Positions 21,581-43,715 of a stretch of DNA of 64,000 nt are shown piece after piece (position 1 is the first letter of the stretch; each line of letters starts with the position of its first letter). This DNA comes from Rhynchobatus australiae. Lineage: Eukaryota. The notes under the pieces are model-generated. The model was not told where the DNA came from. It saw only the letters and a program-made list of their open reading frames with translations, and did not search any database. The stretch is from the NCBI GenBank assembly GCA_034780895.1, contig JAUZTB010000107.1:86425995-86489994 (forward strand). Reading direction: 5' to 3'. The position numbers and the translations under genes were made by a program.

Positions 21581-21681
21581 TNNNNNNNNNNNNNNNNNNN
21601 NNNNNNNNNNNNNNNNNNNNNNNNNNNNNNNNNNNNNNNNNNNNNNNNNNNNNNNNNNNNNNNNNNNNNNNNNNNNNNNNN

Positions 21682-22063
21682 CTTGGAGCGCAGAAGAATG
21701 AGGGGAGATTTGATAGAGGTTTACAAAATTATGAGGGGTATAGACAGAGTTAATGCAAATAGGCTCTTTCCACCTAGATTATGAGAGATAAGTACAAGAG
21801 GACATGGCTTTAGGGTGAAAGGGGAAAGGTTTAGGGGGAGCTTCTTCACTCAGAGAGCGGTGGGAGTGTGGAACGGGCTGCCATCTGATGTCGTAAATGC
21901 AGGTTCACTCTTGAGTTTTAAGAATAAATTGGATAGATACATGGACGGGAGCAGTCTGGAGGGTTATGGACTGGATGCAGGTAAATGGGACTAGCTGAAT
22001 AATATTTCGGCACAGACTAGAAGGGCCGAATGGCCTGCTTTCTGTGCTGTGTTCTATGGTTCT
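21682..22063 (+). mobile_element. Well-preserved CR1-type LINE 3' end
   Basis: LERRRMRGDLIEVYKIMRGIDRVN...RGHG; ends gggccgaatggcctg...ttctatggttcta. Confidence 0.92.
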
Positions 22064-23298: not shown

Positions 23299-23391
23299 CT
23301 GTGGTGGTGTTGGTGTAGAACCTGATCTTCCTCCAGACATAATCTCTTCTGTGATGTCTTTTCCACCCTGGTTTGGATCCCTAATCCGGAT
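23299..23391 (-). CDS. EIF4G1: eIF4G1 coding exon 6 (PABP-binding region): [31 protein letters not shown]
   Basis: 93 nt, phase 0/0. Acceptor acttaatag|, non-canonical donor CAG|GCAAGT. Confidence 0.94.
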
Positions 23392-37264: not shown

Positions 37265-37447
37265 CTGGCTTGGAACATAATAAGGTCCTTGTGACTGATA
37301 TGCAGGTATCTGTTGTGTTGTCATCATCATAATAGTCTGTGAGCCAGGTTGGTAGACATGGGTAGCGGAGGCCACAGGTCGAGTCGCTGTACTACTCTGA
37401 ACCCTGGAAGCACTATTCTGTTGCTGGCCTCTGTTTGCGTAGAATTG
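37265..37447 (-). CDS. EIF4G1: eIF4G1 coding exon 3: QFYANRGQQQNSASRVQSS...HVYQPGSQTIMMMTTQQIPAYQSQGPYYVPSQ
   Basis: 183 nt, phase 0/0. Acceptor ttttctgtag|, non-canonical donor CAG|GCAAGA. Confidence 0.92.
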
Positions 37448-38429: not shown

Positions 38430-40640
38430 AGTGGGGTGGGTGAATAAATTCAAAATAAATCAGTTTAATCTTAAAAGCCAACCCTAATGCAGTTCAGAGA
38501 CCTGGCTACATACAGTGAAGGATGGGAATTAAATATTCTGAATACTTTATACTTCAAAGTGTTAGAAAAATGGTGCAAAGTAGTCTCAACAATTAAAGAT
38601 AACAGTTAGATAGTGAAGAAAGATCTTAACAGCAAGTAGAATCAACATGGGTAGACAAGAGAAACTAACCACTAGCTGTAGTGGCATTGTATACACCGAA
38701 CAGTTGCAATACTGTTAGAAAGCATTAGTCACTGTCTGATCAAATCAATCCTTCCACAGACCATCCAATCAAACTGGCAAAAGTAGCTTGAGAACAAGTT
38801 CATAGAAAGTACTGCAACAGCTTCCTGAAGCAATACATTATAGAAACAACTGGGAATCAGGTAATTTTGGCTCATCTTTTGCAGTGAGACAGGATTCCTT
38901 AGTAACCTTAATAAGGCTAACACATGCAGAAGGGTAATCATAAAATGAATTTAACATCATTCAAAATATGACTCAAACCCAATTTTTAAAAAAGAATGCA
39001 AATTCAATTACACGAGAGGAACAGACCTAACAAAGGCAATATTCATTTAAGAAATGTAAAAGAACAAGAACTTTTGCAAGCACTTAAAAAAAATAACAAG
39101 TATTTGAGAGTCCAGGGGCTCTGACAATATACATGGAAAATATGAGTTTGGATGTTACATATTTTGATCTGTCTTCACAGGATAACACAAATTTAGTCGA
39201 ATTAAGTGGAAAACCAAAAGGACCAATAAGGGATGGGAACTAAAAAAAAGTAAACATTAACAATGAAAAAGTATTGATGAAATGCAAGGTTGACAAATCA
39301 CCTGGACCTGATGGGATGCATTCTGAGAGGTTGTTCGAGAGATAGCAGAGAACATTGGTGAAAAGACTCTGCTGTTTCCTGGAGTCTGGAACAATTCCAA
39401 TGGATTGGAAAGTATCAAATGTAACAACATTATTTCAGAAGGGATAGGAAGTATAGAAAAGAATGCCTCTGGAAAAGTTCTGGAAGTCTATCAAGAACAC
39501 GACATGGAAAATGGAAATCCACAAGATAATGAGTAAGAAAGCCAATAATCAATTGTAGAAGCTACAGAGCTTCACTTTTTGAAAGAAAAACTGAATTTTA
39601 CCATTTTATTTTGCAATGGAGCTCTGCTTTGGTTACCAAAAGGCAACTAGGAAAAGGTGCAATATCTTTCAGTAGTAACAAAGGCAGAGGCAGGTGATGG
39701 GAGAGAGAGAGAGATGGGCATTAGTGAAAAGGATAAAAAGCTAGAGGAATAAATCAGAGTCTCAAGTTAGCAACCTCTTACCTCTGCTGCTTTATGATCA
39801 TGACCAAGATGAAAGGCCATCTGTAATAATATACATAGGGGGGCTATGGCAATGTTGCAGGTTCTGCAAAGGGGCAAGTGAGAAAGCAAGGAAGCACCAG
39901 ATAGTGCATATAATGGGGAGTGGCAATAAATAAATGGTGTCCTCTGGTATCTGGGTGTTTGAAAGGAAAACAATATGACAGCTTTTATTCCAAGAAGAGT
40001 GGAATAAAAGATTCAGAGAAATTGTGAGGCTACACACGAGTCCTTTCCTCCAAGAAAGGATATGTAGTGCAAAGTAGGCTCAATAAATGCCCAGCGAGAG
40101 GATTTTCCAATGGAGAAGGATTATGATTGGCCAATACTCTCAAGTTCAGAAAAAGAGGATCTCATTTAAGATTAAGGGGAGTTGACAGGATAACAATTCC
40201 TCTGGCATGCTCAGGAATTGTAGCAGACTAGCAAATTTTCTCAACTATCAGATGTCATTCTATTAATGGTTTTACAAACTGTCTTTTTTTTAAAAATAAT
40301 GTTAAACAGTAGAATGAATTTTCCAGTGAACCTCGCAAGATGCCAAATCAGAGATTTCTAAATAATCAAATAGTAGATCCGATTTTTACTCCTCCTAAAT
40401 GGAAAGATTATAACAAGCCAAGGATAATATTTAGGTTTGAGATGAGGAGTTCCCTCACTCTTGTGGAATCATACTCCTGTAGGTTGGATAATTCTGAAAA
40501 GTGCTCAGTTGATGTACATTCAAAATTTAGGCTGATAATTCAGTTTGCATTAAAAAAACTGAAGAATGTGGGAATCAGACAAGAAACTGGACTTAGTTAT
40601 GGGATAGTCATTATTGTGTAGCAGTTCTGGGACCAGATGG
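38430..40640 (+). mobile_element. Highly degraded long CR1-type remnant (endonuclease to 3' end)
   Basis: cagagacctggcta (ETWL), gacaaatcacctggacctgatggg (DKSPGPDG), gattggaaagtatcaaatgtaacaacattattt (DWKVSNVTTLF). Confidence 0.65.
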
Positions 40641-42174
40641 CCTGTATTTCTATGGAGGTTTACCACAAATTTCACTGTAAATACTGAAAAACTGTTTTTA
40701 GAATTCATGAGCACAGTCCAAGGTATTACAATCTGATAGCATGTTCCAATTCATTTCCAATTCAGCTTTCAGTATAACTTTGCTGTGACATACCACAATG
40801 CACAATATTGAACTTCATCAGCAAACGTTTTTCCATGGTTGCTGAACATTAGAAAATACTTTTGTGACTACTTTCCTAGCATCAGATCTGTGCACCAAAA
40901 GTATATCAAGATTCAGAACTACAAGTATAACTCAGAATTTTCAAACCTTCTAGAACATTTGCATGTCTACATTTGTTTAGTGCTATTTCATTTATTGTAA
41001 TTTAAGATATATTGCTATGAAAACACAAGCAACACTTCAGGAAATCTCAGTGGTCTCTTAAGCCTTTGCCTCTGTTCAAAAACAGCACCAAATAGTCCTC
41101 AAAAATCACTCGAGGAAATGTCATATTCACCATCATACTATAATCACCAGGCAATACTTAATATGCTTAAAGCAGACATTTTATTTACTCTTTTACAGAA
41201 TTATTTTAAAACTTTCAATTCTGCTTTAATGATTACAATGGAACAAAATGTTTTTCTGTGTAATTTTTAATCTACTGGAAATAGTGGGATCTTCAATAAT
41301 GTCATGAAGGGCGCTGAGTGCTGCAGTTATCATTGATATTAAGGAAGCTTGAACTACAAAACTACATTGCAAAATCTTTGGATGTGCCATATCCTGCAAT
41401 TGGGAGGAATGGTCTTAAAGAACATAGGACCCATTTGGTTGCATTCATTTTTTTAGTTACTCCCTTGTATCTCATTTTTTGATAAAGAAATCATCTGCTT
41501 GTCCTAATCTAATTTGTAAGAATGCAATCTGGAGCAGTTCACTATGTGCAATAAATCTTGTGGATTCCTAATTTCAATGTAATTTTACATCTAAAGTCTG
41601 TTNNNNNNNNNNNNNNNNNNNNNNNNNNNNNNNNNNNNNNNNNNNNNNNNNNNNNNNNNNNNNNNNNNNNNNNNNNNNNNNNNNNNNNNNNNNNNNNNNN
41701 NNNNNNNNNNNNNNNNNNNNNNNNNNNNNNNNNNNNNNNNNNNNNNNNNNNNNNNNNNNNNNNNNNNNNNNNNNNNNNNNNNNNNNNNNNNNNNNNNNNN
41801 NNNNNNNNNNNNNNNNNNNNNNNNNNACCAAAGATTAATTTTTTTCAAAACAGCAGGTTTGCAAGTATTCTGAAGGAATGACAATCCACATAATTCAGAA
41901 ATGAAATTTCATCCATGCCTTTATTTCTAGCAGTTAAATCTATCCAAAAGTTGCTCCTTCTGTCCTAGGCTGTGCAGAAGTGTCAGCCAATAGGAATATA
42001 CTTCTTCAGCTCTTATTTAAATAGCATTCTCCACACATTAATCACCTCTCGTTTAACTGTTAAATCAAGAATTCAGTAGTTTCAGTAAAGTCTTTTAAGT
42101 TAGCAACAACCAGGATAATTTTGGGAAGGTGGTTTCACTTTGCATTGGTAAGGGATTGAAGTATATTACTTTAC

Positions 42175-42204
42175 TTAAGCTGGTCTAGTGCTGTTGAATC
42201 CTCC
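42175..42204 (-). other. Candidate neural eIF4G microexon homologue, GGFNSTRPA-stop
   Basis: ttggag|GGA GGA TTC AAC AGC ACT AGA CCA GCT TAA|GTAAAG, phase 0/0, in the intron between ...PRQ and QFY.... Upstream TGC and TGCATG motifs. Confidence 0.55.
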
Positions 42205-43464
42205 CTCCAATGTTTCAGTCAAAGCATCAACTGCTAATTTTAAAATCTGTAGACAGTCCAACAAGGCAGATGAAAAAAAAAGTCATTGGGAGGCAGGGTT
42301 CTTGAGAGTTGCCATGCAGCAGTGCACTTATTATTTGATCCATCTTTCCATGCAATTTTAAGAGCAGAAGCCTTAAAACTGGTTTACTGTCAAAAAAACT
42401 GAAGCCTATGAAGGCAGACAAAATGAACAGCTCAAGCATTGTTTGTACCGAAGTGCTTACTGGTAGCTCCTCAGAAATAAAGTGATGAAGGAAGGATTAA
42501 GAAACATGAAACGATGTATGCATATCAGAATTTTTATATCTATACAAGAATATTAACTTAAACAATTCAAATCAGCTATAAGACACCTCAGTAACCTGTT
42601 ATTTTGCAAATTTGAGATTCTAGGTCATTTGGGTGAAGCTTTTGAATCCAAACATTATTGGTCAACACCTTCAATATAGGTAGGAAAAGAAAATTGGTAG
42701 TAAATGGAAGCAAAATTGTTGCATATTTGCCAGCTTCAGAATTGCCAATAAAATTATCCAGTAATGCAAGTTATCTAGGTAACTTGCAAACTACAACTAG
42801 AAAATTGAATCTCGGGATATAATGTGACTAATATGGATTTAACCGTTGGGTACGATCTCAAACATGAAAATCAAAGAACAGCTAAATAGTGTCACAATGG
42901 CCAAGCATACTGCAAGGGAATTAAATTTTGACAATTCCAACAAAAGTAACTTGGCCTCAGTACATAACACTTTATAATATTAATCTTCAATTTCAAAAGC
43001 CCTTGGGTGGCTGTCTTGAATATTCATAACATCCAGTTATAGTACAAGTGCTTCAAGGAAATGGTGCAGTTTTGCCATTGAGGAAGAGTGGCTTGTAATA
43101 TCAAACTATAAGACAGTCACATTGCTCTTTTAATCGACAAGAAACTTCAAAAACCAAACTGGCAAAATGACAAGCAATCTAATGTAATGTTTCAAATGCT
43201 ACACATCTCCCAATAACATGCAAGGCCCTTGGCAAGTTCTTTATTGGACAACCAAATTTAGAAAGACAGGATTCAGAGCTCCAGCCCTAACAATGGCACC
43301 AGCTTGCTACTATGTTGTTAGTGGCACAATATACCTGTACAGTAAGATAGTTAAATATTGTCAACAACAGAAATATGGTAATTATTTAATACAGAGCGAT
43401 CAACTTCATACAGTTGTACAATTGCTCAAAAATAATTCTAACTTTCCATTCAGAAATTCCTTAC

Positions 43465-43554
43465 CTGCCGTGGTTGTGGTTGAGTGTTCATTTGTGGAGA
43501 TTGCTGTGGTGCAAAAACTACTGTAGCAGTTGTCTGGCCAGAGGGATAGGCAGT
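43465..43554 (-). CDS. EIF4G1: eIF4G1 coding exon 2: TAYPSGQTTATVVFAPQQSPQMNTQPQPRQ
   Basis: 90 nt, phase 0/0. Acceptor cattgtttag|, donor CAG|GTAAGG. Internal Met46 (MNTQ) at 43489-43491. Confidence 0.93.
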
Positions 43555-43643: not shown

Positions 43644-43715
43644 CTGGGTTATTCCAGAAGGGGAGGGATGTGGGGCAGATGGAGGTCCTCCAATAGGTTG
43701 GGGTCCTTTGTTCAT
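43644..43715 (-). CDS. EIF4G1: eIF4G1 first coding segment MNKGPQPIGGPPSAPHPSPSGITQ (exon probably begins at 43757)
   Basis: ATG at 43713-43715, donor CAG|GTAATT, then an 89-nt intron. Upstream acceptor tgactgtag| at 43758-43759; an alternative AG lies at 43742-43743. Confidence 0.92.

Follow-up and report, generated by a model that had tools for sequence, protein, structure and literature searches.

Introduction

Conservation from shark to mammals has been described for neural microexons. Such neuronal exons in eIF4G1 and eIF4G3 were presented by Gonatopoulos-Pournatzis et al. 2020, as given by the review PMC10551640, according to which mice with a deletion of the eIF4G1 microexon show altered social behaviour and altered inhibitory transmission. 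The mouse Eif4g3 microexon is listed in the supplement of PMC12626420 with 21 nt and the peptide GGFRPIQ, which is the same peptide as that of the EIF4G3 exon of the ray studied here. In bioRxiv 2024.09.17.613571 it is reported that donors of microexons are stronger and that their inclusion is strongly dependent on 5' splice site strength, that SRRM4-driven inclusion tracks donor strength more than the AG-exclusion length, the latter being weakly correlated, and that a UGC is present in 74-79% of SRRM3/4-type microexons.

The window, i.e. the whole stretch of 64,000 nucleotides of Rhynchobatus australiae DNA that was analysed, contains the 5' part of EIF4G1 on its minus strand. A short segment in this gene shares with the neuronal microexons of eIF4G1 and eIF4G3 the same intron, phase 0, the first three codons and a TGC-bearing acceptor. 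Unlike these exons, it is 30 or 35 nt long instead of 21, contains an in-frame TAA, has no CAG/GT donor (a slash marks the splice junction throughout) and carries AGs in the acceptor zone. The segment is very probably derived from an eIF4G microexon, but because of its length, its reading frame and its donor it is not a member of that class. It also resembles the neural NMD microexon of Bak1, as portrayed in PMC10551640, in being short and in that it would bring in a stop if included; inclusion and function of the Bak1 exon were shown in mice, whereas the donor of the ray segment is far below normal and its inclusion is hypothetical. The main new point of this contribution is an apparent lineage-wide loss of the well-studied GGF microexon of EIF4G1 in cartilaginous fishes. 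We found no report in the literature on the loss of eIF4G microexons in cartilaginous fishes; VastDB, supplements and the alignment of the primary paper may record such a loss.

Results

The EIF4G1 locus

The exons of the window were assigned by alignment with chondrichthyan EIF4G1 proteins. The best match was the EIF4G1 of Pristis pectinata with 665 identical residues out of 709 aligned (93.8%), and eight other chondrichthyan EIF4G1 proteins showed 80-87% identity, which probably places the organism among the rhinopristiform rays. The exons ending with ...PRQ and starting with QFY... both match these proteins, and the identification of the gene as EIF4G1 and the placement of the intron by the sequence-only reading were correct. 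The features of this region are as follows.

43644..43715, minus strand: first coding segment of EIF4G1 (MNKGPQ...GITQ), donor CAG/GTAATT; 23/24 residues identical to the Pristis protein P0029 (tblastn)
43465..43554, minus strand: EIF4G1 exon ending ...MNTQPQPRQ, phase 0, donor CAG/GTAAGG; 30/30 residues identical to P0029
43218..43232, minus strand: possible remnant of a FAAGPRALHQ(Q) microexon, 15 nt coding for PRALH (exact run of 5 residues), GT directly after
42313..42354, minus strand: TGCATG present twice, 5' of the candidate segment by 150 and 114 nt
42247..42290, minus strand: predicted upstream in-frame acceptor with T-tract, TGC at -22 and ctacag, which would give a 72-nt form
42195..42229, minus strand: block probably homologous to the EIF4G3 GGF microexon, acceptor -25..-1 and first 10 exon bases, 28/35 bases identical
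42175..42204, minus strand: candidate remnant of the GGF microexon, 30 nt, GGFNSTRPA and stop, TAA at 42177-42175; same in the X1 and X2 contigs
42164..42174, minus strand: two weak candidate donors by position weight matrix, TAA/GTAAAG (GT at 42174) and AAA/GTAATA (GT at 42169)
41603..41826, no strand: assembly gap of 224 N, 3' of the candidate in transcript direction
37265..37447, minus strand: EIF4G1 exon QFYANRG...YYVPSQ, 183 nt, with MMM at 37330-37322 and a GC donor

The intron between the ...PRQ and QFY... exons extends from 43464 to 37448 on the minus strand, and at least nine further exon junctions are present within the window 3' of the candidate stop. Contigs of a second organism (organism B, see below) enter the gap at 41603-41826 by 82 and 12 letters, of which 30 and 12 are shown, and about 130 bases of the gap lie outside every contig compared.

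The candidate segment and its stop codon

Re-reading of the sequence confirmed that GGFNSTRPA and a stop are encoded in the PRQ/QFY intron, with ttggag preceding 42204-42175 and GTAAAG coming after. The 72-nt form (42246-42175) is open as far as the same TAA, and the motifs listed by the sequence-only reading are all present, namely a TGC near the acceptor that starts 22 nt upstream of the candidate, TGCATG at 42354-42349 and 42318-42313, GCATG at 41918-41914 and the MMM at 37330-37322. Inclusion would indeed end the reading frame after 63 codons, the stop being codon 64. Eight of eight acceptor/donor pairs that were tried end at this TAA, with the stop at codon 64 or 78; the exon would be 30 or 35 nt long depending on the donor, and no form is 21 nt long, frame-keeping and free of stops.

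A base error at 42177 had been named as one explanation of the stop. The candidate stretch is present in two public sequencing runs, X1 and X2. The X1 contig spans 41879-42422 and has 0 differences from the window (X1 is possibly the source of the assembly), and the X2 contig, which comes from organism B and is ≈2.4% divergent in this intron, shows no difference within 42149-42272. Because both contigs carry the TAA, the stop is real and common to two organisms, and the assumption of a base error is refuted. The 124 bp around the candidate that are unchanged in organism B correspond to P ≈0.05 (post hoc), and the 83-bp element alone to P = 0.14. In the comparison with organism B, which has no power as a test of constraint, equal or longer runs (124 and 178 bp) occur elsewhere in the same intron, and the live EIF4G3 microexon lies in an invariant run of only ≈72 bp among the differences listed. 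The candidate region is single-copy in the genome.

Splice sites and regulatory motifs

Donors were scored with a small, home-made position weight matrix derived from 25 real EIF4G1/EIF4G3 donors, which is not equivalent to MaxEntScan. Real donors reached a leave-one-out minimum of 4.0 and a median of 8.0 (n = 25), and the donor of the EIF4G3 GGF microexon scored 9.4. The donor TAA/GTAAAG, proposed by the sequence-only reading, scored -2.4 and was thereby weaker than every one of the 25 real donors; among the 296 GTs of the intron, 124 are as good, and the strength of this site had been overstated. The second site, AAA/GTAATA, scored 4.5, above 3/25 real donors and equalled by 15/296 intronic GTs. 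Both candidate donors miss the G at -1 as well as the G at +5, a combination seen in none of the 25 real donors, and neither represents a strong 5' splice site in comparison with the median.

At the 42204 acceptor, AGs are present at -44, -31 and -28 and the region -45..-20 consists of 44% pyrimidine, compared with 84% pyrimidine and no AG nearer than -56 for the EIF4G3 GGF acceptor. A distal pyrimidine tract combined with an AG-free zone is present only at the acceptor of the form that starts at 42246; this site at 42247, 42 nt upstream, looks normal with 76% pyrimidine at -45..-20 and no other AG nearer than -56. Its derivation from a former FAAG acceptor was considered and rejected, as no similarity was found (P = 0.7). 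A UGC between branch point and AG is represented by the TGC at -22, which is a common trinucleotide. Regulation of the mammalian eIF4G1 microexon by RBFOX was put forward by the sequence-only reading. The RBFOX-type signal that had been read from the TGCATG hexamers was overstated, since this motif is not enriched in the intron (5 observed vs 3.1 expected, P = 0.20).

Relationship to the EIF4G3 microexon

The EIF4G3 paralog of the same genome is located at G000:C72, and both of its microexons are intact in the 200 kb examined.

G000:C72:8468269-8468249, minus strand: EIF4G3 GGFRPIQ microexon, 21 nt
G000:C72:8484186-8484154, minus strand: EIF4G3 FAAGPRAAHHQ microexon, 33 nt

With the GGFRPIQ microexon and 30 nt of its upstream flank as query, the best match in the EIF4G1 intron was found at 42229-42195 with a score of 35, which was reached by 0/500 shuffles and by 0/30 other 5.8-kb segments. 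A query with a 60-nt flank gave the same match, more weakly (equalled in 22/500 shuffles and 4/30 segments), and the EIF4G3 upstream flank by itself matched other places and did not recover the candidate site. The pattern AG/GGNGGNTTY arose by chance in 27/2000 intron shuffles (1.4%) and the exact 12-nt match in 1/2000. Because the segment is the best intron match to the intact EIF4G3 GGFRPIQ exon, it is very probably a homolog of the GGF microexon, and the sequence-only reading holds in this respect. The likeness is confined to the 5' half; the 3' half of the candidate is lengthened and can be aligned only with gaps, for which reason a single change from CAA to TAA is only one reading among several. 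No homology to EIF4G3 was found farther upstream of the block (P = 0.36). Homology downstream of the candidate was discounted, as it rests partly on a 17-nt EIF4G3 stretch that is missing in organism B. These 17 nt (L010:6228-6244) lie just 3' of the EIF4G3 GGF donor, within an apparent short duplication.

Beside the 28/35 bases, the candidate and the EIF4G3 exon of the same genome have upstream TGCATG motifs and an in-frame upstream acceptor in common. In contrast to EIF4G1, where neither microexon is intact, EIF4G3 has both in intact form and with good splice sites, and their inclusion is annotated in rays and sharks. The in-frame acceptor of EIF4G3 is located 54 nt 5' of the GGF microexon (G000:C72:8468323-8468249, minus strand) and opens an 18-residue hydrophobic extension, the equivalent of which is present in five listed EIF4G3 models of Chiloscyllium punctatum.

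A genome-wide search with a GGF-exon pattern yielded 11 matches, one of which is EIF4G3 while the other 10 belong to a repeat-like motif. None of them is on the EIF4G1 contig, in agreement with the statement that there is no other GGF-type candidate. The ten near-identical 25-nt matches are distributed over several contigs (L026, L027, L029-L036) and suggest a family of repeats resembling the GGF-exon pattern. A pattern scan of metagenomes for orthologous genomic DNA gave 0 matches, and a search of 50%-representative proteins gave one match, a chimaera gene model that apparently reads into the intron.

The FAAG microexon

In the gap-free region 43464-42247 no intact copy of the FAAG microexon was found, only the 15 nt coding for PRALH, and a FAAG-type pattern had 0 matches genome-wide. 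None of 1000 shuffles of 43464-42247 yields an exact run of five residues of this kind, a statistic that was picked after the match had been seen, and a profile scan with the whole FAAG exon did not place the PRALH site among its top 5. The possible FAAG remnant is located 5' of the GGF remnant, which is the expected order since FAAG must precede GGF. FAAG is present in the EIF4G1 of 6/7 sharks and of chimaera and in 0/18 junction-spanning batoid EIF4G1 proteins (7 named species). The insert comprises 10 residues in Heterodontus and carpet sharks (P0004, P0066, P0230) and 11 residues in catsharks, sawshark and chimaera (P0005, P0044, P0012). Two EIF4G1 models of Esox lucius (P0104, P0105) show a tandem pair of FAAG-like exons.

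Census of related proteins

We retrieved 76 chondrichthyan EIF4G1 records, some of them redundant, of which 56 from 15 named species span the junction. GGF was found in 0/56 and FAAG in 24/56 of these junction-spanning proteins. Eighteen of 21 batoid records span the junction, and neither insert is present in any of them. Among the 128 chondrichthyan EIF4G3 records listed, in which large clusters are represented by some of their members (e.g. 15 of 47 and 15 of 78), 97 span the junction and 37 of these contain GGFRPIQ. The EIF4G3 insert is itself missing from listed members of several species, and such catalogues depend on the tissues sequenced. In bony fishes, a second microexon (GGFRSLQ or GGYRALQ) is present in 24/39 EIF4G1 proteins; the first, FAAGPRALHQQ, is present in 39/39, but the query contained it. 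GGFRSLQ occurs in the EIF4G1 of sturgeon, bowfin, gar, tarpon and eel, and GGYRALQ replaces it in many teleosts (P0081-P0103).

GGF is found in the EIF4G3 of five species, Mobula hypostoma, Hemitrygon akajei, two species of Scyliorhinus and Chiloscyllium punctatum, and in the EIF4G1 of 0/5 of them. Judging from these protein sequences, the coding GGF exon seems to be missing from EIF4G1 across cartilaginous fishes, because none of the 56 EIF4G1 proteins contains it although EIF4G3 shows it in five species. The census cannot separate a dead exon from a poison exon, since an exon degraded by NMD leaves no protein isoform.

Isoforms with a downstream start

Start-proximal stops can evade decay through re-initiation, and mammalian eIF4G1 uses downstream AUGs. 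In six shark species (P0035, P0045, P0047, P0229, P0231, P0236), an EIF4G1 isoform starts with MATHPLN, unchanged in all of them and followed directly by the QYY exon, and one EIF4G1 isoform of S. torazame starts at MMM. Proteins with the MATHPLN start include XP_067898420.1, XP_072330347.1 and XP_048397940.2, and the MMM start is that of XP_072330348.1. None of the 21 batoid EIF4G1 records has an MMM or a MATHPLN start, and re-initiation at the MMM, as envisaged by the sequence-only reading, thus finds no counterpart among the predicted batoid isoforms.

The 20 nt that separate the homologous block from the 42174 donor can be aligned with back-translated MATHPLN with no gap inside the match. 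The shark start might map to the candidate exon, but the evidence is weak. The match ranks 12-15 of 294 intronic GTs, and its log-odds lie close to zero (-0.8 to +1.3 bits); an unanchored scan of the intron was not significant, and the genome-wide pattern gave 0 exact matches. Placements of MATHPLN at an ATG near 42315 or near 39929 were not significant and were rejected. MATHPLN is present in Heterodontus, where EIF4G3 GGF was not seen, and missing in S. canicula, where it was; as MATHPLN does not track the inclusion of EIF4G3 GGF, an alternative first exon fits it better.

Discussion

We assume that the segment at 42204-42175 is probably a decayed and skipped remnant of the 21-nt neuronal GGF microexon. 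Position, anatomy and census are observed, and from these we infer its skipping. The exon ending with ...PRQ would be joined straight to the QFY... exon in all tissues. Cartilaginous fishes presumably ceased to use the coding GGF exon, prior to the split of sharks and rays if the annotations are complete, and the FAAG microexon would subsequently have been lost in batoids, too. Indels and the stop may have accumulated neutrally in the remnant, and the GGF-containing eIF4G isoform in neurons would be supplied by EIF4G3 alone. A dead exon had been mentioned by the sequence-only reading as a fallback, and it is this version that fits best with the weak donor, the interrupted acceptor and the lack of GGF in all 56 chondrichthyan EIF4G1 proteins. 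The version favoured there, in which a poison exon arises from a functional microexon by one base change (CAA to TAA), does not agree with a 3' half that cannot be aligned ungapped, an abnormal donor and an acceptor without pyrimidine tract or AG-free zone. Some findings speak against a dead remnant: the second donor (4.5) beats 3/25 real donors, the 42247 acceptor looks usable, AG-exclusion length shows only a weak correlation with inclusion, the 124 bp around the candidate are unchanged in organism B (P ≈0.05, post hoc), and 28/35 identical bases between paralogs are more than one would expect an element dead for so long to keep (with 0.42 substitutions per site P = 0.02-0.08, with 0.27 P = 0.14-0.45), both distances being based on assumed rates and the identity inflated by local alignment.

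A rival reading is a working poison or start-switch exon, which we regard as unlikely. Either acceptor would be spliced in some cells and the frame would end after 63 or 77 codons; the mRNA would then decay or re-initiate at MMM, and the eIF4G1 made in this way would lack the N-terminal 93 residues but keep the downstream RERK/IRIRDP and YDREFLL segments. That all eight acceptor/donor pairs end at a TAA common to two organisms is in line with this, as are the acceptor side, which has retained more than the 3' half and more than long neutral decay predicts (P = 0.02-0.45, depending on the assumed rates), the analogous upstream in-frame acceptor used by C. punctatum EIF4G3 models, and the MATHPLN-QYY start of six sharks and MMM start of S. 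torazame. MATHPLN also lines up with the 20 nt before the 42174 donor (rank 12-15 of 294), and the stop-carrying neural microexon of Bak1, as described in PMC10551640, provides a precedent. However, the donor is very weak (-2.4), neither start is found in 21 batoid proteins, the log-odds for MATHPLN are near zero with no significant unanchored scan and no exact genome match, the distribution of MATHPLN among species is not that of EIF4G3 GGF inclusion, and RBFOX motifs are not enriched. Of the features of a poison exon, solely a premature stop with exon junctions 3' of it was found. A more specific version, somewhat less likely still, is that the GGF microexon of cartilaginous fishes was converted to a frame-breaking switch exon, with its own AUG (MATHPLN) in sharks and a stop in this ray. 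If this were true, the lengthened shark exon would swap off the N-terminus of eIF4G1, and inclusion of the ray exon would lead either to decay or to re-initiation at MMM; a spliced segment would mean that a coding neural microexon had taken on a new role, that of a start-site or dosage switch of a core translation factor.

It is improbable that the segment is a chance look-alike, i.e. a piece of ordinary intron sequence beginning with AG/GGAGGATTCA, with the true microexon deleted without trace. AG/GGNGGNTTY does arise in 1.4% of shuffles, the longer query is matched in 22/500 and the upstream flank alone goes elsewhere, homology is lacking farther upstream (P = 0.36) and downstream depends partly on the 17 nt missing in organism B; but no shuffle out of 500 reached the score with the 30-nt flank and exon, the 12-nt exact match occurred in 1/2000, and the segment lies in the correct intron, on the correct strand and 3' of the possible FAAG remnant. 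Very improbable is an intact GGF exon that is hidden in the gap of 224 N or was missed in the annotation of sharks, in which case the loss would be recent or only apparent. The ≈130 gap bases outside the contigs compared would leave room for it, and protein catalogues are tissue-dependent and lack the EIF4G3 GGF insert for listed members of several species as well. Yet no insert is present in Pristis, the closest annotated relative (93.8%), or in six other batoids, five species have GGF in EIF4G3 without GGF in EIF4G1, and the pattern search gave no further exon of the GGF type on this contig.

As a dead remnant, the segment would have no function of its own. The loss of GGF from EIF4G1 with GGF kept in EIF4G3, if true, amounts to a natural knockout in a whole class of jawed vertebrates. 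In rays FAAG is missing as well. Such a knockout would offer a test of compensation by the paralog and a view of how a microexon decays.

Other features of the locus

Two EIF4G1 exons have apparent GC donors according to the protein alignment (CAG/GCAAGA at 37265 and CAG/GCAAGT at 23299, minus strand). No retrocopy of the downstream exon of EIF4G1 (37265..37447) was found in the genome. An EIF4G1 isoform of Leucoraja erinacea (P0017) omits the entire QYY...PSQ exon and keeps the frame. Open stretches are present in the window at 63998-63402 (minus strand) and 21680-21991 (plus strand); by eye they resemble fragments of LINE-type retroelements.
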